From Noviherbaspirillum sp. (GTDB lineage: Bacteria > Pseudomonadota > Gammaproteobacteria > Burkholderiales > Burkholderiaceae_D): a stretch of DNA of 64,000 nucleotides. This document shows, in pieces, positions 9,896-27,430 of the stretch; the stretch's first letter is position 1, and each line of letters begins with the position of its first letter. The stretch lies in contig NZ_DASPLS010000072.1 of the NCBI RefSeq assembly GCF_035627455.1, positions 32,276 through 96,275 on the forward strand. Direction: 5' to 3'. A program made the translations under genes and the position numbers. Below the pieces are notes generated by a model. That model did not search any database and was not told the origin of the DNA. It saw only the letters and a program-made list of their open reading frames with translations.

Positions 9896-11845
9896 ATGTT
9901 TTCAAATAAACGGATTGCCGGTTTTGCGCTTGCCGCGGCATCGGCAGTTCTGCTTGTCCCGGCGGCGCAGGCGAAAAAACCTGTTGCCACCTTTGCCAGC
10001 GAGGATGATATTTTCCTGGCGTTGCGCGACGCGTCGCGCAACGGCGATGCCGCGCGCGCCGCGGAACTCGCCGGACGCCTTGGCAACTATGCCATGCCGT
10101 CCTACGTCGACTATTTCCGGCTGCGCCCGCGCATCATCAGCGCGCCGGAGCAGGAAATCCGCGACTTCCTCAGCCGCTACGAAGGCAGCGCGATCGCCGA
10201 CCGCCTGCGCAACGACTGGCTGCTCGAACTCGGCCGCGCCCGCAACTGGATGCTGTTCGACGAGCAGTACCCGCAGTTCGTGCTCAACGACGATACCCAG
10301 GTCAAGTGCTATGCGCTGATGTCGAAGGCACTGAAGGGCCAGAATGTCGCCGACGACGCGCGCGGCGTGCTGGTCAATCCGCAGAATTACGGCGAAGCCT
10401 GCCCGGCGCTGATCACCACCCTGGTGCAGGCCAACCAGTTCACGCTGGATGACGTCTGGGCCCAGGTGCGGCTGATCGCCGACTCCGGCTTCGCCGGCAC
10501 CATCAAGCGGCTGGCGCCGGTCACCGAGGCCAGCGAGACGACACTGATGCAGGCGCTGGACAAGCCGGACGCGGTGCTGGCGCGCGGGCCGGGCGGCAAC
10601 CGCGCCTCGCATGAAGTGTTCATCGTCGCGCTCGGACGCAGCGCGAAGAACAATCCGTCGCGTGCGGTCGATGCGCTGGTTGCCGGCGCCGAGCGCCTGA
10701 ACGAGCGCGAGCGCGAGCATGCGTGGGCGCAGATCGCGCTGCAGACATCGATGAAGCTGGCCCCGGATGCGATCGTGTACTGGCATCGCACCAACGGCGC
10801 GCCGCTGTCCAACGACGCATATCAATGGAAAGCGCGCACCGCATTGCGCGCCGGCGAGTGGAAGCTGGTGAAATCGACCATCGAAGCCATGCCGGCGTCG
10901 CTGCGCAACGATCCCGCCTGGATCTATTGGCTGGGGCGCGCGCATCTGGCCGAAGGCGACCAGGAAACCGCGCGCAAGCTGTTCTCGTCGATCACCGACC
11001 AGACTAACTTCTACGGCCAGCTTGCGCTGGAGGAACTAGGCAAAAAGATCAGCATTCCGCAGCGCGCGGAGCCGGTGACGCCGGAAGAACTGGCGCCGAT
11101 GGCGGACAACGCGGGCTTTCGCCGCGCGCTGAAGTTCTTCGACCTGAACATGCGGTTCGAGGGCTACCGCGAGTGGAACTGGGAGCTGCGCAAGATGAAC
11201 GAGCGCCAGCACCTGGCGGCGGCCGAGTATGCGCGCCAGAAGAATGTGCTGGACCGGATGGTCAATACTTCGGACCGCACCAAGACCGAAGTCGACTTCA
11301 CGCAGCGCTTCCCGACGCCGTTCCGCGACGTGATGGCGGCCGCAACCGAAAAGCTGGGGCTGGACATGGCCTGGGTGTACGGCCTGATCCGCCAGGAGTC
11401 GCGCTTCATCCTGAACGCCCGCTCGCACGTCGGCGCCTCCGGCCTGATGCAGGTCATGCCGGCCACCGCGCAGTTCGTCGCGCGCAAGATCGGGCTGAGC
11501 GGCTACTCGCAGCAGCAGATGAACGATCTCGGCACCAACATCACGCTCGGCACCAACTACCTGAACATGGTGCTCCACGACCTCGAAGGATCGCAGGCAA
11601 TGGCGACCGCGGCCTACAATGCCGGCCCCGGCAGGCCGCGCGCCTGGCGCTCGACGCTCTCGCGGGCGGTGGAGGGCGCGATCTTCGCGGAGTCGATCCC
11701 GTTTACCGAGACGCGGGATTACGTGAAGAAGGTGCTGTCGAACGCGACGTATTATGCGGCGCTGTTCGAGAACAAGCCGCAGTCGCTGAAAAGCCGGCTC
11801 GGCATGGTGGCGCCGAAAGGATTCGTTCCGAGCGAGCTGCCCTGA
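9896..11845 (+). CDS. Soluble lytic murein transglycosylase (Slt70-like)
   Basis: IRQESRF, GASGLMQVMPATA, AYNAGPGR, IPFTETRDYVKKV. Confidence 0.93.
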   Translation: MFSNKRIAGFALAAASAVLLVPAAQAKKPVATFASEDDIFLALRDASRNGDAARAAELAGRLGNYAMPSYVDYFRLRPRIISAPEQEIRDFLSRYEGSAIADRLRNDWLLELGRARNWMLFDEQYPQFVLNDDTQVKCYALMSKALKGQNVADDARGVLVNPQNYGEACPALITTLVQANQFTLDDVWAQVRLIADSGFAGTIKRLAPVTEASETTLMQALDKPDAVLARGPGGNRASHEVFIVALGRSAKNNPSRAVDALVAGAERLNEREREHAWAQIALQTSMKLAPDAIVYWHRTNGAPLSNDAYQWKARTALRAGEWKLVKSTIEAMPASLRNDPAWIYWLGRAHLAEGDQETARKLFSSITDQTNFYGQLALEELGKKISIPQRAEPVTPEELAPMADNAGFRRALKFFDLNMRFEGYREWNWELRKMNERQHLAAAEYARQKNVLDRMVNTSDRTKTEVDFTQRFPTPFRDVMAAATEKLGLDMAWVYGLIRQESRFILNARSHVGASGLMQVMPATAQFVARKIGLSGYSQQQMNDLGTNITLGTNYLNMVLHDLEGSQAMATAAYNAGPGRPRAWRSTLSRAVEGAIFAESIPFTETRDYVKKVLSNATYYAALFENKPQSLKSRLGMVAPKGFVPSELP

Positions 11846-13950: not shown

Positions 13951-14628
13951 ATGAAGACCTATGTCGTCGGCGGCGCGGTGCGCGATGCGATGCTCGGCTT
14001 GCCGGTGCAGGACCGCGACCACGTGGTCGTCGGCGCCACGCCCGAGCAGATGGCGGCGCTCGGCTTTCGCGCCGTCGGCAAGGACTTCCCGGTATTCCTG
14101 CACCCCGACACCCAGGAGGAATACGCGCTCGCGCGCACCGAACGCAAGACCGCGCCCGGCTACAAGGGGTTCGTGTTCCATGCGGCGGCCGACGTGACGC
14201 TGGAGCAGGACCTGGTGCGGCGCGACCTCACCATCAATGCGATGGCCCAGGCCGAGGACGGCAGCATTGTCGATCCTTTCGGCGGCCAGAAGGATTTGCA
14301 GGCGCGGCTGTTCCGCCACGTGTCCGACGCCTTCATCGAAGACCCGGTGCGGATCCTGCGCGTGGCGCGCTTTGCGGCGCGCTTCACCGATTTCAGCGTT
14401 GCACCCGAGACCAATGCGCTCATGCGCCGCATGGTCGAAGACGGCGAGGTCGATGCGCTGGTGCCGGAGCGCGTGTGGCAGGAATTGTCGCGCGGGCTGA
14501 TGGAAGCGAAACCGTCGCGCATGTTCGGCGTGCTGCGCGACTGCGGCGCGCTCGCCCGCATCCTGCCGGAACTGGATGCGCTGTGGGGCGTCCCGCAACG
14601 GGACAAGCAGCATCCTTCTCAGGACTAG
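13951..14628 (+). pseudogene. cca: CCA-adding enzyme, 5' part, truncated at the island junction
   Basis: [50 protein letters not shown]. Ends [15 protein letters not shown] where the family continues into the HD domain (about 400 aa full length). Confidence 0.88.
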
Positions 14629-14902
14629 CAATCAACGATGTCTGCTTCCAGGAGCGTGGTCGAGGCGCAGGCAAGGCCGTGACGAGGGGCTGTCTTACTT
14701 GCGCGCCGCCATGAACTCGTACGATGGAAAGTATGCCGGAGTGCCGGCTTTCATGCTTCTTCCGTTGTGAAAGTGGTTAAAGAGACATCGAGCGGCAGGA
14801 GTGCGAGTGCGGGGTTTTGTTCGCACTCGCCACTAACCACGGTTAGTCTGCAAAAAGAGGCGAGGGGAGGGCGCCGGGATGGCAGCGCACCTCGGTTCGC
14901 CT

Positions 14903-15235
14903 TTAATTGACTACCTCTATCATCGTCACGGTGAGCTTGCCGCCCACCATCTCGGCGACGAAGTTCACCTTGTCGCTAACCGCCAGCCGTTCGAGTTGTG
15001 TGGGGTCCAAAACACTGAATGCCATTGTCATTGGCCCCATCCCGAGGTTCTTCAAGTCGCCATGCTTGATGGTGACTTTCTTTGCAGCCTTGTCGACCTT
15101 CCGCACAACACCCTCGGAGACTGGTCCGCTTGGCTTGGAACGGTGCGAGTCGTGGTTATGATGCTGGGCACCAGCCGGCAGTACAAAGGAAAGTCCAAAT
15201 GCAACCGCGGCCGCGAGACTGACGAGCGTTCTCAT
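14903..15235 (-). CDS. CusF-like periplasmic copper-binding protein
   Basis: Signal peptide; KVTIKHGDLKNLGMGPMTMAF (H..M.M) motif. Confidence 0.88.
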   Translation of the reverse strand: MRTLVSLAAAVAFGLSFVLPAGAQHHNHDSHRSKPSGPVSEGVVRKVDKAAKKVTIKHGDLKNLGMGPMTMAFSVLDPTQLERLAVSDKVNFVAEMVGGKLTVTMIEVVN

Positions 15236-15249
15236 CTAGATTCCCCTCT

Positions 15250-15693
15250 TTAGTCGTGATGGCTGAAGACACGGGTCCGGCGGTTTCCGTCAACCAGCAA
15301 GACGTCGTACGAGTCTTTTCGGGATCCTTCCATGCCTGGAGAGCCCATTGGCATGCCAGGAGCGGCAAGGCCCTTTGCGTTGGGCCTTTCTGCAAGGAGG
15401 CGCTTGATATCGGCTGCGGGAACGTGCCCTTCAATGGCATAACCCGCGACCACACCGGTGTGGCACGACCCCAAATCATTGGGGATGCCGTGCTTTTCAC
15501 GATAGTCAGAAGGATTCGCGACATTATGGGTTCTCACGGTGAAGCCGTTACTTTCCAGATGCTTAACCCAATCGCCGCAGCAACCGCAGTACGCGCTCTT
15601 GTAGACGTCGATAACAGGTGCGGCGGCACTTGCAAGTACCGGGGCGGTGAGTAGCGCAGCCATTGCGGCTTTCAGTAGAAGTTGCGATTTCAT
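15250..15693 (-). CDS. DUF411 (CopG-like) periplasmic metal-binding protein
   Basis: YKSAYCGCCGDW, SCHT, EGHVPA, PGMPMGSPGME. Confidence 0.92.
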   Translation of the reverse strand: MKSQLLLKAAMAALLTAPVLASAAAPVIDVYKSAYCGCCGDWVKHLESNGFTVRTHNVANPSDYREKHGIPNDLGSCHTGVVAGYAIEGHVPAADIKRLLAERPNAKGLAAPGMPMGSPGMEGSRKDSYDVLLVDGNRRTRVFSHHD

Positions 15694-15696
15694 GAT

Positions 15697-16212
15697 TTAA
15701 CCTTTCAACACTTTGATTTTTCCAAACATCCCGGCTTCAAAATGCCCGGGAATAAGGCATGCGAAGTAGAAATCGCCCGCCTTCGTGAACTGCCAGACAA
15801 TGTCACCCTTTTGACCTGGCTCTACATGCGCGGATGACGGGTCATCGTGTCGAAGTTGACGCTGCTGGGACATTGCCTTGCCGTGAGCCTTTAACTCGTC
15901 CATCGTGCCGAGCACCATTTCATGCAAAAGCTTTCCCTTGTTCGTCACAACGAAGCGGATGGTTTCTCCTTGCTTCACGCTTACGGCGGCCGGACCAAAG
16001 CGCATGTCATCAGTCATCTCGACAGGAAGCGTGCGGCTAACTTTCCTCGCATTTCCCGGCTTGCCGAACATGTCGGCTTCCGGGGCATGCGCAGCGTTAT
16101 GAGACGTGCCTTGGCCGTGAGACCCGGCGACGGCAAGGGCATTGGTCGAGGCAAAGCTGAAAGCGATTACGACAGGCGAAATCACAGCGGCAACGGTATT
16201 CGTTTGAGTCAT
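15697..16212 (-). CDS. Cupredoxin/plastocyanin-like periplasmic protein
   Basis: MTDDMRF, HEMVLG, FACLIPGHFEAGM type-1 Cu ligands. Confidence 0.9.
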   Translation of the reverse strand: MTQTNTVAAVISPVVIAFSFASTNALAVAGSHGQGTSHNAAHAPEADMFGKPGNARKVSRTLPVEMTDDMRFGPAAVSVKQGETIRFVVTNKGKLLHEMVLGTMDELKAHGKAMSQQRQLRHDDPSSAHVEPGQKGDIVWQFTKAGDFYFACLIPGHFEAGMFGKIKVLKG

Positions 16213-16394
16213 CAGAAGTCCTTCCTGGTCATATTGGTACTCGGGCGCGATTCGCTGCGAATGCAGTCGCCACCCGGGGTATGGAACCACCGGCAGACCA
16301 TGCGCTGGCTATAGCGGGAATGTCGGTGACGGGTGAAGCTGGGGCGTCGAGCTAGGTTGCCGGGATGCGCGAACGCATCCCGCACAAGCTGGCT

Positions 16395-16808
16395 TTAACC
16401 GTGGAAGTACCGAGGAGGCCGTTCCAAGCCGGCCGGGATATGGCCGGTAAACGCGATCGGAGGGCGAGAGGTCACTGCCTCAGAGCCGGCGAAACGCTCT
16501 GCCCGGAGAAGACTTGACGGCGGCGCAACAGCGCCGATAAAACATGCCGAAGTACCGCAGCCAGTGCCCTTCAGGTGGCTTTGTCCATCGGCCTGCCCTT
16601 TATTGCTGCAGTGGTCACTGCCGCTTGCCGATAATTCATCATGGGCTTGAAGATGATGGGAACGGTCCTGATGATGTTTCATCTCGGCAGTCATTTCTGA
16701 CGGCGAGTGAGGACCGGTCGCACAAAACATGTCGCCAGCCGCCATCCCTCTCAATGGGAGAGAAGCAATGACGAGCAGAATCAACAGTGTTTTGAATATG
16801 CGGTTCAT
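16395..16808 (-). CDS. CopL/CzcI-like secreted His/Cys-rich protein, first ORF of the cop operon
   Basis: Signal peptide LLVIASLPLRGMAA, His-rich middle, CGTSAC, C-terminal ERPPR. Confidence 0.7.
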   Translation of the reverse strand: MNRIFKTLLILLVIASLPLRGMAAGDMFCATGPHSPSEMTAEMKHHQDRSHHLQAHDELSASGSDHCSNKGQADGQSHLKGTGCGTSACFIGAVAPPSSLLRAERFAGSEAVTSRPPIAFTGHIPAGLERPPRYFHG

Positions 16809-16855
16809 TACCGGGCAAGTGGCTGCAACGAAAGCGTCGGTCAGCTTTTCCGAAA

Positions 16856-16886
16856 AGAATAAACCTTGCTACGGGGGGAAGGTCAA
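16856..16886 (-). promoter_or_regulatory. CueR/MerR-type sigma70 promoter with 19-bp spacer
   Basis: Minus strand reads TTGACC-TTCCCCCCGTAGCAAGGTT-TATTCT; dyad ACCTT..AAGGT as in the E. coli copA CueR box. Confidence 0.85.
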
Positions 16887-16977
16887 GAAGAATCCGGGCG
16901 CTCCTTGACTTGTCCCCCAAAGCTGGCGTGCTGGCCCTTCTCGGTGTAACCTATTGGAAGTTTCTCGTTCGATTTAT

Positions 16978-17334
16978 ATGCGACGTTTTTTTTGCATTTT
17001 GATGATGTTGCTGCTGCCGCTGCATAGTTTTGCTATGCAGGGCGGCTGGTATTCGTCCGCAAGTGCATTTGACATCAGCCATGAGGTGGACCACCTGACA
17101 GGTGCCGCGCATCACCATGATGACCACCATGGTTCGGTTCATTACGATAATTCGAGCGACTCCAGCAGTCATTTCGCCGAACACTCTGCAGGTCATTCGT
17201 GCGCGGCGCTGCCGAGCACGGTTTGCCCGCCCCTGGCCATTGCGTTGTCCAGCGCAGCTGTTCCCGAAGCCCGTCAGTTCATCCCGGATCCCATTCCCGA
17301 GCGCTTGCAGCGCCCCCCAAAATCCCTCGGTTAA
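16978..17334 (+). CDS. CzcI-like secreted His-rich protein, first ORF of the RND operon
   Basis: Signal peptide, HEVDH..HHHDDHH, C-terminal PDPIPERLQRPPK. Confidence 0.75.
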   Translation: MRRFFCILMMLLLPLHSFAMQGGWYSSASAFDISHEVDHLTGAAHHHDDHHGSVHYDNSSDSSSHFAEHSAGHSCAALPSTVCPPLAIALSSAAVPEARQFIPDPIPERLQRPPKSLG

Positions 17335-17393
17335 TTCACCGAGGGCATTCCGCACTTTCCGAGTTTTACCCGTTGAGCGTCGCTGGGCGTTTT

Positions 17394-17426
17394 CGCGCTT
17401 AGTACGCGCTTAGTACGCGCTTAGTC
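17394..17426 (+). repeat. Three tandem copies of 11-bp CGCGCTTAGT(A/C)
   Basis: Read directly; 45 bp upstream of the TolC-family start. Confidence 0.9.
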
Positions 17427-17470
17427 CGTTTGCCTTCGGCCAGTTTTTCTGGATCCCGAATGGAGAACAT

Positions 17471-18694
17471 ATGCGTAAAGAATTAACAAAGCATCATCTG
17501 TGCTTTGCGCTAGCACTTGCACTGGGCGCAGCGTCGGCGCCGGCGCTGGCGCAGAGCCGACCGGCTGACCTGAAGGCGGTACTGGAAGCTGCATGGCAAC
17601 GGTCACCGCAAGCCAGGACACTGGAAGCGCGACGGGACGAAGCAGCGGCGGGCAGAGAAGCCGCGCAGTCCTGGATAGCGGGTTCGCCTGCAGTTGGCCT
17701 TTCCCAAAGAACCGACCGTTGGACGAAGCGCGAAGGGGTGCGCGAAACGGAGGTTTCCCTTTCAACACCTATTTGGCTGCCCTCTCAAAAGGCTGTCCGC
17801 CGCGCCCAGGCCGACATAGGCACCGAAGACCTGGAGGCGCAGATAGCCAATGCACGACTTTCGCTGGCAGGCGAAGTACGGGAGCGGCTTTGGGCAGTAG
17901 CGGCTGCCAGGGAAACATTGGACGAGGCGAAATCCCACCAAGAACATTTGGAAGCAATGACTGAGGAGGTCATGCGACGTGTTAATGCAGGCGACCTGGC
18001 AAGAACAGACGGAATGCTCGCGCAGCAAGAAGCGCTTGCCGGGAAGGCTGCCGTCGTTGAAGCCCAAGTGAAGCTGCAGGAAGCCTTGACGCACTACACG
18101 ACGTTGACCGGCCTGAGCGACGTTCCGCAGCTCGAGCCAGAACGAATCGGCGCCGAAATGCGAGACCCGCATCCAAGGCTGCTCGCGGCGAAAACAGCTG
18201 TCCGGCACGCGCAGGCGTCAATGAACGTGGTGAGCAAGTCACGCAGCGAGCCACCGACGGTTGGCGTGGCAATGCGAAGGGAACGGGACGGAGCTGCAGT
18301 CGATGCCGCTTCAAGCATTACGTTTGCAGTAGAGATTCCGATTGGGACGAATGCCCGAAACCGGCCTTTGGAAGCCGCTGCTCGAACCCTGATCGCAACA
18401 GCGTCGGCGGAATATGCCCAGGTAGAAGCATCACTGCGGGATGAAGTCGACCTTGCGCGCCGAAAAGTGCTGGCATCGCAACAGACACTGGAAACCGCGT
18501 CCTCGCGCGCCGCATTGGCCCGTGAACATGCGCGCCTGATAGAAAAAGCGTTCAGGGTCGGCGAGCGAGGACTTGCAGAGATGCTCCGTGCCCGGACCGC
18601 CGTGCACGAAGCCGAAGTTGCGGAGCGCCAGCAGCGCGTGGCCGTTGGTCTTGCACACGCTCGCCTGAATCAGGCATTAGGAATCTCACCATGA
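17471..18694 (+). CDS. TolC/CzcC-family outer-membrane efflux protein
   Basis: Signal peptide, repeated OEP helical pattern, position in an RND operon. Confidence 0.88.
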   Translation: MRKELTKHHLCFALALALGAASAPALAQSRPADLKAVLEAAWQRSPQARTLEARRDEAAAGREAAQSWIAGSPAVGLSQRTDRWTKREGVRETEVSLSTPIWLPSQKAVRRAQADIGTEDLEAQIANARLSLAGEVRERLWAVAAARETLDEAKSHQEHLEAMTEEVMRRVNAGDLARTDGMLAQQEALAGKAAVVEAQVKLQEALTHYTTLTGLSDVPQLEPERIGAEMRDPHPRLLAAKTAVRHAQASMNVVSKSRSEPPTVGVAMRRERDGAAVDAASSITFAVEIPIGTNARNRPLEAAARTLIATASAEYAQVEASLRDEVDLARRKVLASQQTLETASSRAALAREHARLIEKAFRVGERGLAEMLRARTAVHEAEVAERQQRVAVGLAHARLNQALGISP

Positions 18695-19233
18695 AAATCC
18701 TGAACATCATCTGGCTCTTCTTTGCCCTGACTTCTACTGCATATGCCCATGGTGACGAGGACCACTCCAAGGACGGCACGCCGGCCGCCCAAGCACAAAG
18801 TGCGGGACAGCCGCGTGTCGAAACGTTTACCGAGGCCTTTGAACTGGTGGGCCAACTGCAGGGAAAAGAGCTATCTGTCTTTATTGATAAATACGAGACG
18901 AACGAGCCCGTCTTGAACGGCAAGCTCGAAGTCGAGTTGAACGGCCTGAAGTCGGTGGGAAAGTATCGGCCGGAGCGTGGTGACTATGTCATTGCCGACG
19001 AGGGATTCATCAAAGCGCTGGCTGCGCCAGGCAAGCATGCACTTGTCTTCACACTGTCGGCGGCGGAGGAAACTGACCTTCTGGAGGGCACACTTGAAGT
19101 CCAACCGGCCGTCGAGCATGAAACAAACACACAGTTTCCGTTGGCATGGGCAGGCGCAGGACTGCTTGCTGCGCTTGCTTTGATAGCCCTGGCCGCAAAG
19201 CGCCGCCGTTCCACACATCCGACGGGGAAATAA
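18691..19233 (+). CDS. Hypothetical periplasmic protein with N-terminal HGDEDH and C-terminal TM anchor
   Basis: ATGA overlap with upstream gene, signal peptide, hydrophobic C-terminus plus KRRR. Confidence 0.7.
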   Translation: MKILNIIWLFFALTSTAYAHGDEDHSKDGTPAAQAQSAGQPRVETFTEAFELVGQLQGKELSVFIDKYETNEPVLNGKLEVELNGLKSVGKYRPERGDYVIADEGFIKALAAPGKHALVFTLSAAEETDLLEGTLEVQPAVEHETNTQFPLAWAGAGLLAALALIALAAKRRRSTHPTGK

Positions 19234-19235
19234 AC

Positions 19236-20354
19236 ATGCTTGACAAGATTTCATATTCAATCATTGGTTTGATCGTTTCCGCACTCTCGTCGGCAGCAAT
19301 CGCGGGGCCAGGGGCCCACGGGCCGAATGGCGAGCATTTGGACGGCCCGGCGGCATCAAGCGTAACCGGATTGGCGCGTTTGCCGGACGGGAGCGTGAAT
19401 GTGCCCAAACTCGCACAACGGAGAATGGCAATTCGCACCGTCATGGCGGGCGAAGCCGAGCATCCGCGCACCGTCGAACTGAACGGCCGCATCAGCATCG
19501 ACCCCAATGCCGGTGGCCGGGTGCAAGCACCGTTTGCCGGCCGGGTTGAGGCCGGACCAAAGGGGCTGCCGGTAGCTGGCGAGCGCGTGGAGAAAGGTCA
19601 GGTTCTCGTACATGTTCGACCAGTGGCGGGCGCCATCGAGCGCAGCAATCAGCAGGCCCAGCTCGTCGAACTTCGGTCCAACCGTCAGTTGGCTGAGCAA
19701 CGAGTAAGGCGGCTCGAGTCGCTTGAAGGTACCGTTCCCCAAAAGGAAATCGAGGCGGCAAAAGCCGAGCTGACAAGCCTGACGGGGCGGGAAAAGGCAG
19801 TTGCAAGCAGTATTGGGGGCAACGAGGCTATCACGTCGCCCGCCTCTGGAGTCATTGCTGCCGCAAACGTCCTCGCAGGCCAGATTGTCGAGGCACGCGA
19901 TGTCCTTTTTGAAATCGTCGACCCCAGCCGGATGATGGTTGAGGCACTCACGACGGACCCGGCACTCGCTGGACGTATCGATAGTGCCACGCTTGCCGGT
20001 ATCCCTGGCGTCGGCCTCAGCTTGTTAGGCGGAGGTCGAAGCCTTCGCGAGGGAGCATTACCTCTTAACTTTCGTGCTTCCGTTAAAGATGCGGCGCTGG
20101 CCGTTGGCCAGCCGGTGACAGTTGTGGCGAAACTGACCGAGAAGGTGAAGGGAATTGCGTTGCCTGCCGAGTCCGTTGTTCGCAATCCTTCAAACGAACC
20201 GGTTGTATGGATTAAGGCGGGCGCAGAGCGCTTCGTCGCCCAGCCCGTGGAAATGCGCCCGCTTGATGCAAAGACCGTTGTTGTGGTGAAGGGGCTGTCC
20301 GCCGAGAACCGTGTTGTGAGCTCTGGCGCGGCACTAATCAACCAGATCAGGTGA
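19236..20354 (+). CDS. RND periplasmic adaptor (CzcB/CusB-like MFP)
   Basis: [36 protein letters not shown]. Confidence 0.88.
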
Positions 20355-20364
20355 GGTCGAACAA

Positions 20365-23300
20365 ATGTTTAACTCGATTGTTCGATTCAGTCTGAGTAAC
20401 CGGTTATTCGTGCTGGTTGCCGCATTACTCCTGGTGGTGTACGGCACCCTGATGGCTTCCCGTACTCCTGTGGATGTCTTTCCGGACTTGAATAAACCGG
20501 TGGTCACGGTCATGACGGAAGCAGGCGGCATGGCCCCGGAGGAGGTCGAACAGCTTGTGTCATTCCCGATTGAGACGTCACTCAATGGCATGCCGGGCGT
20601 GACGCGGGTTCGCTCGGTATCCGGCGTCGGACTCTCTATTGTGTACGCGGAGTTTGACTGGGGGACGGACCTCTACCGCAACCGCCAGCTTGTGGCCGAG
20701 CGCCTTGCCTTGGTGAAGGAGCAGCTGCCGGGCGGAATCACCCCGATCATGGGGCCGGTGTCGTCCATCATGGGCGAAATCATGTTGATTGCCCTGCCAA
20801 TCGACGTTTCAAAAGCAAGCCCGATGCAGGCACGGGAGTATGCCGACTTCGTCCTGCGCCCGCGCTTGCTGTCGATTCCTGGTGTCTCCCAGGTCATTCC
20901 GATTGGCGGCGAGGTGCGCCAGCTTCGCGTCGAACCCGATACGGCGCGAATGGCGCAGTTCAATGTCACCCTCGACCAGATAGCAACGGTCCTCCAGGGA
21001 TTTGCGACCAACACCAGCGGCGGCTTTATCGACCTGCACAGTCGAGAATACTTGATCCGCAACCTTGGCCGGACCACCCGGGTGGAGGATATGAAAGGCC
21101 TTGCCGTCGCCTTCCGGAACGGTACTCCGGTTCTGCTGGAACAAGTGGCCTCCGTCAGATATGCGCCAGCGTTCAAGCGAGGTGATGGCGGCATGAACGG
21201 CCTGCCCGCGGTTATCGTAAGCGTGCAGAAGCAGCCGGCCGCCGATACGGTCAAGCTGACGCGGGAAATTGAAAACGCACTGAAGGAACTGAAGCAGGGC
21301 CTGCCCGCAGGGCTGTCCACGCCCGAAGTCCTGTTCCGACAGGCCGATTTCATCGAGGCGTCCATCGGCAATGTGGCCGAAGCATTGCGAGACGGCGCCA
21401 TCATGGTTGCCATCGTACTGTTCGCGTTCCTGTTGAACTTCCGGACCACTGCAATCTCCCTCATTGCCATCCCGTTGTCGCTTGCCGTTACCGCGGTCGT
21501 GTTTCACCTTCTCGGGCAGTCCATCAACGTGATGACCCTCGGAGGGCTGGCCATTGCAATCGGCGAGCTGGTCGACGACGCGGTGGTTGACGTGGAAAAC
21601 ATCCTGCGCCGACTCAAGCAGCGCAAGGCTGGCGAAGGCCCGCCGTCCGTCATGCACGTCATCTGGCAGGCTTCGGTCGAGGTCAGGTCCGGTATCGTCT
21701 ACGCGACTGTCATTGTCGTATTGGTGTTTGTGCCGCTGTTTGCATTGCCTGGCATCGAGGGCAGGCTCTTCGCGCCGCTCGGTGTGGCCTATATCGTATC
21801 CATATTGGCGTCGATGCTCGTGTCGATGACCGTGACACCCGTGCTGTCGTACTTCCTGTTGCCGCAAATGAAGCAGCTTGCACACGGCGACAGCCCTGTC
21901 GTCCGACGACTGAAGGCGTGGGATACGCGAATTCTGGAGTGGTCGTTTCCGCGCGTGAAAGGCATCCTTGCCGGTGCCGCATTGGTTGTGATCGGCGCTG
22001 CAGCCACGGTCCCGTTCTTCCCACGCGCCTTTTTGCCTCCGTTTAACGAGGGCTCCCTGGTCATGGGCATGACGTTCACACCCGGCACTTCGCTCGGGGA
22101 GGCAAACCGCATGGGCGCACTGGCGGAGACGCTCATCAGGGAAGTGCCGGAGGTGTCGAAAGTCGGCCGCCGAACCGGGCGCGCGGAGCTCGACGAGCAT
22201 GCGGAAGGCGTTCATTCCTCGGAAATCGATATCGACCTGAAGCGCTCAGAGCGGAACCGCGAAGAGGTCATGGCCGACTTGCGCAGCAAGCTGTCCGTCA
22301 TACCTGCGTCGATTGCGATCGGGCAGCCCATCTCGCATCGCCTTGACCACCTGTTGTCCGGTGTTCGCGCGCAGATTGCTCTCAAAATCTACGGAGACGA
22401 CCTCGATACCCTGCGCGGGCTCGCCGAGGGACTGCGCGGAAAGCTGACAGCTGTGCCGGGGCTGGTCGACTTGTCCGTTGAACGACAAGTGCTTATCCCG
22501 CAAATCAAAGTCCGGGTCGATTACCGGAGGGCGGCGCAGTACGGCCTGGCGCCGGGCCAGGTACTGCAGGCACTGGAAACGTTGTCGGAAGGCGACCGGG
22601 TAACGCAGGTTGTCGACGGGCCTCGCCGGTTTGACCTGATGGTCCGACTGCCGGACCAGAATCGTTCACCGCAGGACTTGTCGCGCGTCATGCTGGACAC
22701 GCCGGCCGGCCGGATTCCCCTGTCGGAGATCGCGGCGGTCGAGGAAAGCGACGGGCCGAACCAGATTGGCCGAGAAAACGGTCGTCGCCGGATCGTCGTG
22801 TACGCGAATACCGATGGCTCGGACATGTCGCGGGTGATCGGAGATATCCGCAGGGTTATCGCGTCAACTGCGCTGCCCGGCAGCTACTTCATCAGCATTG
22901 AAGGGCAGTTCCAGGCGCAGGAGCAGGCAACCAGGCTGATTATCGGCTTGTCGCTGGTGTCATTGATGATGATTTTCCTGGTGCTGTATTCACGATACCG
23001 TTCAACTGCCCTGGCACTGGTCATCATGGGAAATATCCCGTTCGCGTTGATCGGCAGCGTCGCCGCGATGTGGATCGCGGGCATTTCCTTGTCGGTCGCG
23101 TCAATGGTGGGTTTCATTACCTTGACCGGCATCGCGACACGTAACGGCATCCTGAAGGTCAGCCACTACATCAACCTGTGCAAATTTGAAGGCGAAACCT
23201 TCGGCACGAAGATGATTATTCGCGGCTCACTGGAGCGCTTGACGCCGGTGTTGATGACGGCGCTTGTCGCCGCATTTGCACTGGTGCCGCTGCTCTTGGC

Positions 23301-23469
23301 AGCGGACGCCCCTGGCAAGGAAATTCTGCACCCGGTGGCAGTCGTGATTTTTGGCGGTCTCGTGAGTTCAACAATCCTCGACTCCCTGCTGACACCGTTG
23401 ATTTTCTGGCTTGTGGGCCGCAAGCCCCTGGAGACGCTGGTTGCCGGACAATCAGAGGAAGCGTATTAA
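20365..23469 (+). CDS. CusA/CzcA-family heavy-metal RND permease
   Basis: [21 protein letters not shown]4 [27 protein letters not shown]. Confidence 0.95.
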
Positions 23470-23525
23470 GAACGGGCTATTGCAGCGGCGCCCATGGACG
23501 AGCCGCTGCACGTATGGAGGACGCA

Positions 23526-23903
23526 ATGAAAAAGTATCTCGCCCTGGTGGCAACGGCAGTAACGTTAGCAACAAGCGGAAGCGTGTGGGCACATGGGGAA
23601 AAGGCCAAACATGGCGGTATCGTTCAGGAATCCAGCAGTGGCGTCAGCCTCGAGCTGGTGGCCAGGGATGGGAAGGCCACGATTTACGTGGAAGACCATG
23701 GGAAGCCGGTTTCAACCGCGGGAGCCTCCGGGAAGCTGACCGTACTGAATGGGACGGATAAATCGGAAGTCCCGCTCGAGCCGGCTGGAGAAAATGCCCT
23801 GGTGTCGAAGGGGGACCCAAAGCTCGGCACGGGCGCGAAGGCGATTGCAGCCATCCACCTGGCTGATAAAAAGACAGTGAACGTCCGCTTTGCGGTCAAG
23901 TAA
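23526..23903 (+). CDS. Small periplasmic protein (HGEKAKHGG) typical of metal-efflux loci
   Basis: GGAGG RBS, signal peptide, His motif. Confidence 0.75.
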   Translation: MKKYLALVATAVTLATSGSVWAHGEKAKHGGIVQESSSGVSLELVARDGKATIYVEDHGKPVSTAGASGKLTVLNGTDKSEVPLEPAGENALVSKGDPKLGTGAKAIAAIHLADKKTVNVRFAVK

Positions 23904-23964
23904 GTGCCTGAGAGCGGCGGGCGCAAGAACAAGCGCTCGCCCGAATTAACGGAATGAGGAAGCA

Positions 23965-24462
23965 ATGAAAATCAAAAATGTTTCGACCATGTTTGCCCTT
24001 GTGGCGGCAGTCACGGCTCCAACAGCGCTTGCGCAACAATCGACTGCGCCAGGCCTGGCCGACAAGGTCAAGGGTTTGTTCGCTCAGCCAAAGGAAGACG
24101 AACTCATCGAGCCGGATCTGGCGTTCAAGTTAAGTGTGGTGGCCAAGAACACGAACGTATTGCACGTCGAGGTTGTGCCGGCAAACGGCTATTACGTCTA
24201 CAAGGAGCGCATGCGTTTTTCCATAGAGGATGGAAGCGGCGTGCGAATTAAAGACGTGAAGTTTCCCGGCGGTGAAATGAAGAATGACCAGATTTTCGGC
24301 CGCACCGAGGTCTTTAGGAAGACTGTCCCGGTCGCGCTTACCCTCGAAAATGCGGCAAAAGGGAAACCTATAACGCTGCAGGCGTCGTATCAGGGTTGCC
24401 ACGAGAAGCTTGGTGTTTGCTACCCACCGATTGATAAAACGGTACAACTGACGCTGCCTTAG
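23965..24462 (+). CDS. Stand-alone DsbD N-terminal domain protein
   Basis: PDLAF, GYYVYKERM, SYQGCHEKLGVCYPP (CX5C). Confidence 0.85.
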   Translation: MKIKNVSTMFALVAAVTAPTALAQQSTAPGLADKVKGLFAQPKEDELIEPDLAFKLSVVAKNTNVLHVEVVPANGYYVYKERMRFSIEDGSGVRIKDVKFPGGEMKNDQIFGRTEVFRKTVPVALTLENAAKGKPITLQASYQGCHEKLGVCYPPIDKTVQLTLP

Positions 24463-24578
24463 CCTTGCTGGCTAGCCTCTTTCGTGTCGTAAGTTAAACT
24501 AAACCAGACTGCCGGTATTCTCCTGCTGTCACTTTCCGACTAGTGGTTTCCTGATTTTTCAATTACCAGAGTAGCGTT

Positions 24579-25172
24579 ATGGGCAGCGACAACGACACCG
24601 TGAAAGAAAAAACCTTTGGACAGCTCGTGATGGAAGCCCTCGATATCGCTTCGCAGAAAAACGCGTCTTTAGCTGTTCGCTTTGCTTGCCTGGTCTCCGG
24701 CATCGGGAAGAATCAGCTAGCCGGTAATCAACAAGTCGACCAAGTTAGCGGGGCAGGACGCGCGAGAATCCTCGACCTGTGCGAGCGGTTGCGCGTGCCC
24801 ACCGAGTGCAAGGAGCTGGCATTGACCATGGAGCGAGAGCATGCTCAAGTCGATGACAGTCCGAGTTTCAATGCGGAAGAGATAGTAAATTTGCTCGAGC
24901 GGTGTGATGCAATTCGAAAACCTGGCCGGTTTCGCGAGCTCCTGACGGCATGTGAATGCATCGCGCAAGCGTACGATGAAAAAGGAGATTTTCAGTACCA
25001 AGCTTCGCAGCTCTTAAATGCTGCCGCAGACGCAGTTCGCAGAGTTGACACGGGCGCAATCGCAAAGAGAGCTGCCGCAGATGGAATGCAAGGCCCAGAC
25101 ATAGGCAAAGCCGTACACTCCGCCCGAGTGGAAATTCTCAAACAAACCTTACAGCCGGGATCTGGCATCTGA
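24579..25172 (+). CDS. Divergent CCA-enzyme C-terminal domain protein with degenerate HD motif
   Basis: LAVRFACL, LCERLRVPTECKELA, EH, LLERCDAIRKPGRF, DTGAIA, GPDIGKAVHSARV align to the CCA C-half; LTHDLGK is replaced by LVSGIGK. Confidence 0.8.
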   Translation: MGSDNDTVKEKTFGQLVMEALDIASQKNASLAVRFACLVSGIGKNQLAGNQQVDQVSGAGRARILDLCERLRVPTECKELALTMEREHAQVDDSPSFNAEEIVNLLERCDAIRKPGRFRELLTACECIAQAYDEKGDFQYQASQLLNAAADAVRRVDTGAIAKRAAADGMQGPDIGKAVHSARVEILKQTLQPGSGI

Positions 25173-25268
25173 CAAGCTCAAAAGGCTCCGTAACCTTTCT
25201 TCGCTGATGCCGCAGCTACTTTTATAGTCACGCGTCCGTTCGAACTGCAGGACGATTTCATTGCGTCG

Positions 25269-25438
25269 TTTCCGCAGGCGGTGTACCTGCATGGAGCGAT
25301 CGAGGCCGCGCGGGCGGTGAGCGCCGGCGCGATCGCGCAGCGCCTGCGACGGTGCCGAAGCGCATTCCGGAAGCGATCACCGCCGCACGTATCGGCGCTG
25401 TAACTGCTTTTCTGCGACAGCAAAAACACTTTGAGTAA
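25269..25438 (+). pseudogene. cca: Host cca 3' remnant, frameshifted
   Basis: FPQAVYLHGAIEAARAVSAGAIAQRL / shift / VPKRIPEAITAARIGAVTAFLRQQKHFE*; host-like GC. Confidence 0.75.
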
Positions 25439-25597: not shown

Positions 25598-27430
25598 ATG
25601 TCCAAACACGCTTCGCTCGTGCATGCACGAGACATGCGCGGGCCCGTCCCGGCGCCGGCGCCGAAACTCGAAGTCGCCGACCTGCTGGTCGCCTATCTCG
25701 AGCAGCTCGGCGTCGATTATGTGTTCGGCGTCCCCGGCGGCGCGATCGAGCCGATCTACAACGCCCTCGCGCGCAGCGCACGGCGCGGCGGTCCCCGTCC
25801 CGTCGTCGCCCGTCATGAAGCGGGCGCTGCGTTCATGGCCGATGGCTACACACGCGAGACCGGCAAGCTCGGCGTCTGCTGCGCAACATCGGGCCCGGGC
25901 GCGACCAACCTGATCACCGGCGTCGCGTGCGCGTACGACAACGGCATCCCGATGCTGGTGCTCACCGGTCAGCCCGTTCTGCCTGCATTCGGCAAGCGCG
26001 CATTGCAGGAATCCGCATGCACCGGCGTCAACACGCTGGCGATGTTCCGCCATTGCACGCGCTACAACTCCCTGGTATCGCATCCCGAGCAGATGGAAGC
26101 GAAGCTGACCGCGGCGCTCATGTGCGCGATGCGCTCGCCGCGCGGCCCGGTGCACCTGTCGATTCCGCTCGACATCCTGCGCAGCGCCGTTCCGCAAAGC
26201 GCGACTTCCTATGACTTGCGCAGGCTGCTGCAGCCGGCCCCGATGATCGACGAGACGGCGGTGGAACTGCTGGCGCGCGAAGTGCGGCAGGCTAAGCACA
26301 TCGTGATGCTGGTCGGCGGCTGGTGCGGCGAGGCCGCGGGCGCCATCCTGCAGTTCGCCGCGCAGACCGGCGCGCGCATTGTCGCCACGCCGGACGGCAA
26401 GGGGCTGGTCAGCCCGCGCCATCCGCTGTTTCGCGGCGTGTTCGGTTTCGCCGGCCACGCCTCCGCCGATGCAGCGCTGCGCGATAAATCTGTCGACCTG
26501 ATCCTGGCCGTCGGCACCAGCATGGGCGAGTGGACCAGCGCCGGCTGGAGCGATTCGCTGCTCAACAGCCGCCTCATTCACATCGACGAGTGCGAAGACC
26601 ATTTCGCGCGCAGCCCGATGGCCAAGCTGCATGTGCGCGGCCGTATCCTGACGGTGTTCGAACGCCTCGGCGAGAGGGTGCGCGAGCTGCAGCCGGCACA
26701 GGGCGCGGCCGCAGCCGCCGGCGAGCAAGACGCCGCCCTCGAAGCGGAACTCGCGGGCGAAGAAAAGCGGGACAGCGACGCCGTGCCCATCCTGCCGCAA
26801 CGGCTCATGCGCGATCTCGGACGCCTGTTTCCGCCAAGCACCCGCTTCCTGGCCGATGCCGGCAACAGCGTCGCCTGGGCGATTCACTGCCTGCGTCCGC
26901 AGGACAGGCGCATGAGCGAGCGGCGTCTGCCCGGCGAGCGCAAGAGCACGTCGGGCCGGCGCAAGACCGACGGCGGCTGGCTGCGCGTGACGATGGATTT
27001 CGCGCCGATGGGGTGGGCCATCGGCGGCGCCGTCGGCACCGCGCTGGGCAATCCCGAGGTGCCGGTGGTCTGCATCACCGGCGACGGCAGCATGCTGATG
27101 AACGGCCAGGAACTCTCGGTTGCCGTTGCCGAAAACCTGACCGTGATCTACATCGTGCTCAACGACGCCGCGCTCGGCATGGTCAAGCACGGCCAGCGCC
27201 TGGCGGGCGCCGAAAGGATCGCGCATAGCTTGCCGCGCACCGACTTCGCCGCACTGGCAAGGGCGCTCGGCGCCGATGCGTTCACCGTGCGCCGCCCGGA
27301 TGAACTCGGCGCGCTCGACATGACGGCCATCTGCAGCCGCAAGGGCCCAACCTTGATCGATGTGCACATCGACGGCGAGGAGGTGCCGCCGATGAATCTG
27401 CGGATGCGGGCGCTGGGGACCTTGTTGTGA
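25598..27430 (+). CDS. Thiamine-diphosphate-dependent enzyme (acetolactate synthase large-subunit fold)
   Basis: VFGVPGG, ARHEAGAAFMADGY, TSGPGATN, ITGDGSMLM..IVLND; no ilvN/H small subunit nearby. Confidence 0.9.
   Translation: MSKHASLVHARDMRGPVPAPAPKLEVADLLVAYLEQLGVDYVFGVPGGAIEPIYNALARSARRGGPRPVVARHEAGAAFMADGYTRETGKLGVCCATSGPGATNLITGVACAYDNGIPMLVLTGQPVLPAFGKRALQESACTGVNTLAMFRHCTRYNSLVSHPEQMEAKLTAALMCAMRSPRGPVHLSIPLDILRSAVPQSATSYDLRRLLQPAPMIDETAVELLAREVRQAKHIVMLVGGWCGEAAGAILQFAAQTGARIVATPDGKGLVSPRHPLFRGVFGFAGHASADAALRDKSVDLILAVGTSMGEWTSAGWSDSLLNSRLIHIDECEDHFARSPMAKLHVRGRILTVFERLGERVRELQPAQGAAAAAGEQDAALEAELAGEEKRDSDAVPILPQRLMRDLGRLFPPSTRFLADAGNSVAWAIHCLRPQDRRMSERRLPGERKSTSGRRKTDGGWLRVTMDFAPMGWAIGGAVGTALGNPEVPVVCITGDGSMLMNGQELSVAVAENLTVIYIVLNDAALGMVKHGQRLAGAERIAHSLPRTDFAALARALGADAFTVRRPDELGALDMTAICSRKGPTLIDVHIDGEEVPPMNLRMRALGTLL

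Follow-up and report, generated by a model that had tools for sequence, protein, structure and literature searches.

How a housekeeping gene comes to lie in two pieces, and whether its products still act as one enzyme, are the questions raised by a 64,000-nucleotide stretch of Noviherbaspirillum sp. DNA (the window, throughout), in which two halves of cca, the gene for the CCA-adding enzyme, stand 10 kb apart. An earlier note, made from the sequence alone, had proposed that a host N-half and an island-borne C-half tile one full-length protein, either as a natural two-subunit enzyme lacking the repair phosphatase or as the work of a cca-targeting element whose replacement 3' end was pushed off the junction by later cargo. 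The tiling was borne out, the two ORFs covering positions 1-225 and 229-404 of the NF008137 model. Members of this family are single polypeptides of some 410 aa with scores no lower than the cut-off of 451 bits (621-653 bits for full-length relatives), whereas the separate ORFs score 419.3 and 108.8 bits. The window probably preserves what is left of a site-specific integrative island, now immobilised, that is aimed at one conserved spot in cca (Table 1).

Table 1. Features of the interrupted cca locus, with positions in the window.
Feature	Position	Strand	Basis
N-half ORF of host cca (225 aa) with catalytic head and neck	13951-14628	+	NF008137 positions 1-225 of 409, 419 bits; PF01743 and PF12627
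CATCCT, His221-Pro222 codons, left junction and insertion core	14610-14615	+	Host homology stops at 14615
Foreign island, ~10.6 kb, GC 0.52-0.62	14616-25250		Composition; ORF list and Pfam; no counterpart in relatives
cusF-like gene	14903-15235	-	PF11604
DUF411 gene	15250-15693	-	PF04214
Cupredoxin gene	15697-16290	-	PF00127
Putative outer-membrane factor	17471-18694	+	ORF list
180-aa ORF between outer-membrane factor and membrane-fusion protein	within 17471-23469	+	ORF list
Putative membrane-fusion protein	to 20354	+	ORF list
Putative RND pump, 1034 aa	20365-23469	+	ORF list
Secreted ORF, 129 aa	23514-23903	+	No family found
DsbD N-terminal-domain protein	23965-24462	+	PF11412
Element-borne cca C-half gene, 197 aa	24579-25172	+	NF008137 positions 229-404, 108.8 bits
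Decayed stump of element right arm	25173-25250	+	Alignment of three regions downstream of C-half
Remnant of host cca 3' end, codons ~345-405	25255-25423	+	tblastn of genus Cca; DNA alignments
TPP-enzyme gene, host synteny resumes	25667-27430	+	blastn

Entry of the island into the sole cca gene

The N-half ORF retains a Pol-beta-type head and neck with their catalytic motifs (PF01743, 72.5 bits; PF12627, 43.8 bits; EDPVRILR is visible in the sequence) and is 82-87% identical to the intact cca of same-genus genomes. The ten same-genus genes extracted encode 404-416 aa, and in all 30 relatives searched with the N-half the cca frame runs uninterrupted for 367 aa or more. In blastn comparisons of 11 same-genus loci, host homology breaks at 14615. 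The search for another full-length cca suggested in the earlier note found none in the assembly (94.6% complete), the only other PolyA_pol gene being pcnB (TIGR01942, 489 bits). The host's sole cca was thus entered by the island after codon 222, and the N-half ORF therefore ends three codons into island DNA: its C-terminus reads ...VPQRDKQHP from the host, followed by SQD and a stop from the island. Nothing is fused in frame at this junction. In the AF2 model of the N-half (pLDDT 88), the last helix spans residues 206-211 and is followed by coil; the break falls in the coil between this last neck helix and the first helix of the C-half.

Relatives have no counterpart of the island between cca and the downstream gene, and its right boundary is approximate (25236-25262). 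The plus-strand cargo at 17471-23469 looks like a cusCBA-like copper/silver efflux set, named from ORF sizes and order and from the neighbouring cusF; the island is referred to as a copper-resistance island. Neither the ORF list nor Pfam revealed a recombinase or transposase gene between 14616 and 25250. PF00589 matches do occur elsewhere in the genome; the closest of them is on the host side, about 15 kb upstream of the junction.

A frameshifted remnant of the host cca 3' end, overlooked in the earlier note, follows the island. With Cca of the genus as tblastn queries, aa 355-379 matched 25269-25343 and aa 381-405 matched 25346-25420 in different frames, the frameshift resulting from a one-base deletion near 25344. 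The blastn alignments of relatives L006, L010 and L013-L016 pick up again at 25667-25676. A later deletion took the element right arm and host codons 223 to ~345, so the element C-half is the sole body/tail module left in the genome. With its right arm gone and no recombinase found, the window copy is immobilised.

A shared insertion site in three elements

Related low-GC C-half genes were found on two metagenome contigs of 3.6-3.8 kb (L017 and L022). In both, the C-half gene is followed by a conserved AT-rich arm that borders directly on an intact host C-half at its CAYCCT GAAATCGAYACCGG (His-Pro-Glu-Ile-Asp-Thr-Gly). The right junction of L022 runs from ...GCGATAAT into CACCCTGAAATCGACACCGGCGTGCAT, and that of L017 from ...CTACCTAAC into CATCCTGAAATCGATACCGGTGCACAT, immediately before CACCCT in L022 and CATCCT GAAATCGA in L017. 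Three independent junctions (left in the window, right in L017 and L022) therefore fall at the His221-Pro222 codons. The intact, HD-bearing host C-halves of both contigs group inside the clade of the window's genus; the L017 and L022 elements thus sit in two other hosts of that genus. Since their right junctions are the His-Pro codons at which the window N-half breaks, the three copies form a family of integrative elements specific to cca and carrying a conserved, HD-dead C-half gene. The target is the DNA for His-Pro/Glu-Ile-Asp-Thr-Gly, where the HD domain begins. The tiling of cca halves, which also escaped the earlier note outside the window, recurs in these other genomes, and the window case is therefore not a one-off coincidence.

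In each of the three elements the C-half gene stands immediately within the right end and points outward; two of them have the displaced host C-half beside it. The targeting of cca, one of the two options in the earlier note, is essentially borne out, whereas the separation of the C-half from the 5' half by later cargo is not supported. Downstream of the C-half stop, L017 and L022 share the arm blocks AAAAGTATAATAGTT..AGAATTTT and CAATAGTTAC; the window arm is decayed and truncated and has neither AAAAGTATAATAGTT nor CAATAGTTAC, and the left end is known from the window copy alone. The C-half ORF is 197-199 aa long and begins at the same codon with its own start codon in the window and in L022, where the 5' end is on the contig. 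The family comprises three members in all collections searched, none of them a complete element.

Two explanations would dispense with a site-specific element. Under one, the island and a donor cca C-half entered by homologous or homology-facilitated illegitimate recombination with the N-half as anchor. The absence of a detected recombinase from the island, the untidy right join with its 370-bp host deletion and the last N-half codons, which depart from the genus pattern, would fit such an event. It is nonetheless very unlikely, given three independent junctions on the same CAYCCT, exact to the base, the resumption of the host C-half without loss in L017 and L022, arm motifs shared by these two copies although their C-halves are only 46% identical, and a VPA1267-family gene in L022. 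Under the other, the contig wrongly joins two organisms at cca, as might be suspected of a 109-contig metagenome-assembled draft with 4% contamination. However, a single contig of 102 kb shows synteny with same-genus genomes to either side of the locus, the left join lies outside shared sequence, and junctions of the same kind occur on independent contigs from other samples; we regard an artefact as most improbable.

The VPA1267-family neighbour gene in L022 is full-length (174 bits, cut-off 90), and this family (NCBIfam VPA1267_fam) is found beside gmtX/gamma-mobile-trio genes on plasmids. From this gene, on one short contig, the element recombinase would be of the multi-tyrosine-recombinase kind. 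No VPA1267-like gene or arm copy was found elsewhere in the window's assembly. SEs, GInts and gamma-mobile-trio elements (PMC10214605, PMC5385486) resemble this family in that they are specific for a target site with a short core, differ in cargo and in some cases insert within genes; for GInts, outward promoters are reported to limit the damage to target genes (PMC5385486). The searched passages of these two papers mention neither a cca target nor a carried gene half, and in the SE survey Tfp or Srap homologues, the latter probably corresponding to VPA1267, were not found in Betaproteobacteria (PMC10214605). Unlike in those elements, a recombinase was seen in none of the three copies, the L017 and L022 contigs being short; only the accessory gene in L022 was observed.

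Phage 21 and e14 in icd, and SXT in prfC, are in-gene integrative elements that bring along a replacement for the displaced gene end; its in-frame fusion to the host part restores a single polypeptide. The present family likewise combines site-specific insertion in a conserved housekeeping gene with a copy of the displaced part. In contrast, the left junction here meets a stop after three codons, and the replacement is an ORF in its own right, located at the element's other end, with its own start and a dead HD site.

Origin and maintenance of the element-borne C-half

The C-half gene starts with an ATG of its own and encodes a 13-residue leader before homology sets in at Glu223; it scores 109 bits against NF008137, versus ~210-240 bits for a normal C-half. 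Its identity to C-halves from the host genus is 32-37%, and among billions of proteins searched no full-length Cca exceeds 48%. Its low GC, pointed out earlier, was verified (GC3 0.56 versus 0.80-0.87 in host genes) and agrees with the island composition. The genus identity, this composition and the host remnant downstream rule out the C-half as the host's own displaced half. It is 72% identical to its L017 counterpart (P0002) and 40% to that of L022 (P0235), and the C-halves of all three elements group as a single clade (SH-aLRT 97) with very long branches.

The losses of HD residues listed in the earlier note were each confirmed in an alignment with 80 full-length Cca proteins: the first His is Leu, HD is SG, H..HE is Q..GA and ECD is ECI. 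All metal ligands of the H...HD...H..HE...D pattern are thus lost, and RGR is changed to QAY in the same alignment. Pfam found no HD domain in the C-half. The ECD and RGR losses are common to the window C-half and P0002, and the HD site therefore died before these copies split.

The ORF is intact, with no stops or frameshifts, as had been noted. The dN/dS check proposed earlier gave 0.16 between copies (dN 0.185, dS 1.13), with zero indels over 122 codons, arguing against neutral evolution. There were 34 amino-acid changes, versus 58.6 +/- 3.6 expected under neutral simulation, a count reached in none of 20,000 runs (P<5e-5); the simulated probability of no stop was 0.047. The gene descends from a cca C-half and has evolved very fast but under purifying selection, which has kept it. 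AF2 models the protein with confidence (pLDDT 89.8), and among PDB structures the fold is matched best by chains of class II CC-adding enzymes. A sigma-70-like promoter was looked for upstream of the gene and not found; the gene has a weak Shine-Dalgarno sequence and is preceded by a weak terminator-like hairpin.

The host N-half also seems to be still constrained. Its DNA identity to the genus (0.821) matches the genus norm (0.823), and its pairwise dN/dS is 0.09-0.15. Genus-invariant sites are changed at 5/390 positions in the N-half and 3/44 in the remnant, a weak contrast (Fisher p=0.038) suggesting a core without decay, unlike the remnant and the last four N-half codons.

Possible fates of the split enzyme

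Like E. coli-type Cca (NF008137/PRK10885), the locus encodes a full head/neck core and a C-half of same-family HD/body-tail descent with the helical fold kept; unlike it, it does so in two distant ORFs of different origin, each below the family cut-off. E. coli Cca has a 2',3'-cyclic phosphodiesterase/phosphatase role (PMC6961547), which cannot be present here because all HD metal ligands are lost. [quoted passage not shown] If the two halves work together, CCA synthesis would likewise be divided between two polypeptides; such pairs, however, are two complete paralogues, each with a head, whereas here one head would need a head-less partner, and the only other head-bearing gene is pcnB. The beta-subunit of bacterial (alpha-beta)2 glycyl-tRNA synthetase contains an HD-fold domain, partly resembling the class II CCA-enzyme body domain, in which the catalytic His-Asp is replaced by Ser-Lys and which helps to bind the tRNA acceptor arm (PMC8464048). 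It resembles the C-half as a dead HD-fold domain on a polypeptide separate from the catalytic subunit, but belongs to another enzyme and is ancient, universal and not on a mobile element.

The cca gene may simply be dead: a dispensable repair gene knocked out, with the N-half a not-yet-decayed stump and the C-half a passenger without a role in the host, selection on it having acted earlier or serving the mobile element. CCA is encoded in 40 of the 43 tRNA genes, answering a check that the earlier note had proposed, and delta-cca strains of E. coli survive (PMC6961547); the gene could therefore be dispensable. The immobilised island with its decayed arm and the poor expression signals of the C-half point the same way, and the normal divergence of the N-half fits a fairly recent event equally well. 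However, a dead gene sits poorly with a dN/dS of 0.16 and no indel or stop between copies at dS above 1, with ORFs of 197 and 199 aa kept at 40% identity and, weakly, with decay of the remnant and tail beside an intact N-half core; we consider it somewhat unlikely. A working two-piece enzyme, in which the N-half and HD-dead C-half come together non-covalently to add or repair CCA but lack the phosphatase function, would account for purifying selection after HD loss, an own start codon at the same boundary in copies only 40% identical, the intact N-half core and a break in inter-domain coil. Body/tail domains bind acceptor and T-arm helices (PMC3925840), and the synthetase beta-subunit provides a precedent for a dead HD domain aiding tRNA binding from a separate polypeptide (PMC8464048). 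It is nevertheless unlikely, the genes being 10 kb apart under different control and the C-half only 32-37% identical to its partner's native half; cca is dispensable where tRNA genes encode CCA (PMC6961547), and an intact host C-half beside the element in L017 and L022 makes the element copy not obviously needed there.

The preferred reading of a cca-specific element suggests that its C-half may be a functional tRNA-binding module encoded by the element. The role most likely for it, put forward tentatively and itself doubtful, would be to compensate for the disruption of cca through non-covalent pairing with the host N-half. The element would thereby cut the gene of a housekeeping enzyme at the linker between two domains and provide the missing domain as a separate, remodelled protein. 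Should the HD-dead C-half bind the host N-half, the result would be a natural two-piece class II CCA-adding enzyme without its end-healing phosphatase, an outcome to which we give a low probability; the window host, its own half being deleted, would have become dependent on that of the element.

Structure of the divided cca gene and origin of its second half

The earlier note had proposed that the host ORF for the head and neck of the CCA-adding enzyme (hereafter referred to as the N-half) and an island-borne ORF some distance away (the C-half) tile a single protein, the second having lost its HD residues. Both ORFs are present as claimed and match successive parts of NF008137, which models the E. 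coli-type CCA addition/repair protein in NCBIfam. With this model, full-length relatives reach 621-653 bits, so the share of a normal C-half would be roughly 210-240 bits. In an alignment with 80 full-length Cca, each residue loss listed was observed, together with further ones: the first His is replaced by Leu, HD by SG, H..HE by Q..GA, ECD by ECI and RGR by QAY. No second cca was found in the 94.6%-complete assembly, in which the only other gene with a PolyA_pol domain is pcnB (TIGR01942, 489 bits).

Features of the cca locus, its island and neighbouring or related loci (window positions unless a contig or locus is named)
Feature	Position	Strand	Length	Description
N-half ORF	13951-14628		225 aa	NF008137 positions 1-225 of 409, 419 bits; Pfam head and RNA-binding domains
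C-half ORF	24579-25172		197 aa	NF008137 positions 229-404, only 109 bits
Remnant of host cca 3' end	about 25255-25423			Downstream of C-half; residues 355-379 and 381-405 in two different frames
Small island ORF	16395-16808	minus		His- and Cys-rich, signal-peptide-like start, without Pfam family
Small island ORF	16954-17334	plus		His- and Cys-rich, signal-peptide-like start, without Pfam family
Island ORF	18691-19233		180 aa	Signal-peptide-like start; no Pfam or NCBIfam family
Island ORF	23514-23903		129 aa	Signal-peptide-like start; no Pfam or NCBIfam family
Tyrosine recombinase ORF	G000:C72:30805-31299 (the window's own contig)		328 aa	PF00589, 120 bits
VPA1267-family gene	L022:164-601	minus		Full-length protein adjoining the C-half; NF040697, 174 bits (cut-off 90)

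Searches with the N-half yielded 30 relatives, 18 of them from the same genus. The cca frame was unbroken over at least 367 aa in all 30, and the 10 same-genus genes extracted were 404-416 aa long. The DNA of these relatives matches the window up to position 14615, and then again from about 25667. The order at the locus is the host N-half (codons 1-222), an island of about 10.6 kb ending in the foreign C-half, and a stump of the host C-half, in which the reading frame changes because of a 1-base deletion; host codons 223-~345 are missing. Identity between the C-half and the C-halves of the genus is only 32-37%, and the GC3 of the former (0.56) lies with that of the island genes (0.56-0.75) rather than that of host genes (0.80-0.87). 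Given these values and the true host remnant downstream, the C-half is not the displaced half of the host gene. Nor is it a piece of a normal Cca from a living low-GC lineage, as no close full-length relative was found in two word-indexed searches (one with the N- and C-halves fused in the query, to admit full-length proteins) and an exhaustive phmmer search (1.84 billion representatives). Among the billions of proteins covered, none was more than 57% identical to the C-half, a metagenomic fragment (P0002, 72%) aside, and the 57% match extended over a short stretch only; full-length Cca were at most 48% identical. The first 94 residues of the C-half, searched separately, gave no match.

The island cargo concerns copper and silver handling and comprises cusF, DUF411, a cupredoxin, a cusCBA-like efflux set and a DsbD N-domain protein. 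The two His- and Cys-rich ORFs are divergent and head the two operons of the island, and the two ORFs of 180 and 129 aa lie inside the copper-efflux cluster. No recombinase or transposase gene was found among the island genes. In syntenic DNA on the host side, the tyrosine recombinase ORF precedes the window start by about 1 kb and the cca junction by about 15 kb; this is probably an Xer-type housekeeping gene.

Related elements at the same site

Two related element-borne C-halves were identified on metagenome contigs. P0002 is truncated by a contig edge at locus L017 (metagenome-assembled genome GCA_050262395.1); P0235, of 199 aa and 40% identical to the window C-half, lies at locus L022 (JGI metagenome 3300029999). 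Both genes have a low GC content inside higher-GC contigs, and are followed on their 3' side by about 200 nt of AT-rich DNA (hereafter referred to as the arm) with the common blocks AAAAGTATAATAGTT..AGAATTTT and CAATAGTTAC. The right junctions read ...GATAAT|CAC CCT GAA ATC GAC ACC GGC GTG CAT in L022 and ...CCTAAC|CAT CCT GAA ATC GAT ACC GGT GCA CAT in L017, and the host DNA beyond them encodes His-Pro-Glu-Ile-Asp-Thr-Gly, running into an intact, HD-bearing C-half. In the tree, these displaced host C-halves group within the clade of the window's genus. The window N-half ends with the same His-Pro codons (...CAG CAT CCT|). The element C-halves of L017 and L022 are only 46% identical, and the arm motifs are conserved between them. 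Three independent junctions on one hexamer (CAYCCT), with arm motifs conserved at this level of divergence, point to site-specific integration into cca, and argue against a one-off illegitimate event. The arm motifs are absent from the window copy, and neither a VPA1267-like gene nor a second arm was found in the window's genome; this copy is therefore a stranded remnant, and is immobilised.

The VPA1267 family, to which the full-length protein of L022 belongs, is found on gammaproteobacterial plasmids directly after gmtX of the "gamma-mobile-trio". The association suggests a multi-recombinase element akin to the SEs or GInts (PMC10214605, PMC5385486), and we infer that VPA1267 corresponds to the SE protein Srap. 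No recombinase was seen in any of the three element copies. A published survey reports no homologues of the SE core genes (Tfp/Srap) in Betaproteobacteria (PMC10214605); the VPA1267-family gene, associated with the gamma-mobile-trio, is now placed on an island whose host, by its cca, groups with a betaproteobacterial genus. Elements of this kind are already known; neither a cca target nor a remodelled half-gene carried along is described in the passages searched of published accounts of such elements.

No further copies or complete elements were recovered by a protein scan of genome contigs or an order-level DNA search, or from plasmids searched by DNA and protein. A family-level protein search with P0235 returned ordinary cca only, the metagenome scan a single ordinary cca, and the arm-motif pattern scan 15 chance matches in AT-rich genomes with no cca nearby. 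Nothing convincing was found in the window by way of terminal direct or inverted repeats. Several apparent split genes were set aside. P0028 is a plain frameshift. The cca genes of L054 (G551, C2, about 736376-737537; a single frameshift at codon 187/188) and L021 (9453-10681; a single frameshift at 10001) look divided in gene calls, but no element has inserted there, and they are either pseudogenes or errors of assembly. Four HD-less metagenome sequences, P0236 (L051), P0237 (L052), P0239 (L023) and P0241 (L053), were excluded from this element on the basis of their GC content (0.71-0.76) and high-GC flanks. In these Cca C-terminal regions the HD doublet is changed to YA (P0239), deleted (P0236), or changed to GG (P0237) or HA (P0241). 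P0239 and P0241 (running off the contig edge) seem to be degenerate-HD Cca of other lineages, otherwise ordinary cca genes, and loss of the phosphatase site may recur in full-length Cca enzymes.

Constraint on the two halves

The three element-borne C-halves formed one clade (SH-aLRT 97), whose branches have 10-20 times the length seen in ordinary Cca C-halves, such that a long-branch artefact is possible. Neutral evolution, which would have counted against the earlier note, was not observed: the window C-half and the L017 copy differ by a dN of 0.185 and a dS of 1.13 (dN/dS 0.16; 122 codons, no indel), in the range of the C-halves of working cca genes in the genus (median dN/dS 0.15). When the 96 observed nucleotide differences were placed at random in 20,000 runs, 58.6 +/- 3.6 amino-acid differences were obtained (minimum 44), against 34 observed, and only 4.7% of the runs were free of stop codons. 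The losses of ECD and RGR are common to these two copies, so the HD site was dead before they diverged. The window and L022 C-halves, despite their 40% identity, both have open frames of 197-199 aa with their own start codons and some 13 leader residues before the homology, which starts at Glu223, directly after the insertion core. The element C-half is a maintained gene, not decaying scrap. Its AlphaFold2 model is all-helical (pLDDT 89.8), with low confidence only at residues 41-58, the remodelled HD loop. In the PDB, the folds closest to this model are those of class II CC-adding enzyme chains (TM 0.5-0.57, weak E-values), with HD-fold proteins next; PDB sequence searches with the C-half or its profile gave no match.

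The N-half is as similar to its genus relatives in DNA sequence (identity 0.821) as is the norm for the genus (0.823), with pairwise dN/dS values of 0.09-0.15. Within 14590-14615, three of its last four codons before the junction carry amino-acid changes with respect to all genus relatives, PQPE[QK]HHP having become PQRDKQHP. These changes could have arisen by drift once the tail was freed, or the element could have brought in a short tract. The Arg of this tail is reminiscent of VPQR(A)EYHP, a pattern of Comamonadaceae-type Cca. Genus-invariant sites were changed at 3/44 positions in the host 3' remnant, which is also frameshifted, versus 5/390 in the N-half (Fisher p=0.038); these small numbers give a weak hint that the catalytic core remained under constraint over a time long enough for drift in unconstrained DNA. 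In the structural models, the last helix of the N-half (206-211) is followed by coil, and the C-half begins with coil and then a helix from residue 13, so the break is predicted to fall in an inter-domain linker.

Possible function of the carried half

We consider the structural and evolutionary account, a cca-targeting element carrying a separate half, to be probable. The earlier note had offered such an element as one of two readings, and this part of it stands; its idea that the carried half is a replacement 3' end parted from the gene by cargo does not, the half being a gene in its own right, conserved and located at the island's far end. The other reading, that the N-half and C-half form a working split enzyme, looks unlikely. 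[quoted passage not shown] The Shine-Dalgarno sequence of the C-half is weak in the window and good (GGAG) in L022, and the DNA preceding the window C-half showed no sigma-70-like promoter. That cca is simply dead here, with the C-half idle in this host, is also doubtful, if somewhat easier to accept. CCA is encoded in 40 of the 43 predicted tRNA genes, a point that the earlier note had left to be checked, and the other three, of which two have an atypical length, are in our view doubtful predictions. The enzyme of E. coli, a species with CCA encoded in every tRNA gene, is used for repair, and delta-cca strains of this species are viable (PMC6961547); taken with the count in this genome, this indicates that loss of cca is tolerable.

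Islands inserting into conserved genes are common, and some bring a replacement for the gene end, which is joined back to the gene. The cca element family differs from these in keeping a free-standing copy of half an enzyme, fast-evolving yet selected, from which the catalytic site of that half has been removed. If the C-half pairs with the host N-half, the pair would be the first class II CCA-adding enzyme found naturally in two pieces, and would represent a novel means by which a mobile element offsets its insertion cost, or creates host dependence. If it does something else, it would be a tRNA-binding module recruited by a mobile element. Either way, the locus is a clean natural experiment that bears on whether head/neck and body/tail can act in trans, and on whether the enzyme can do without the HD phosphatase.
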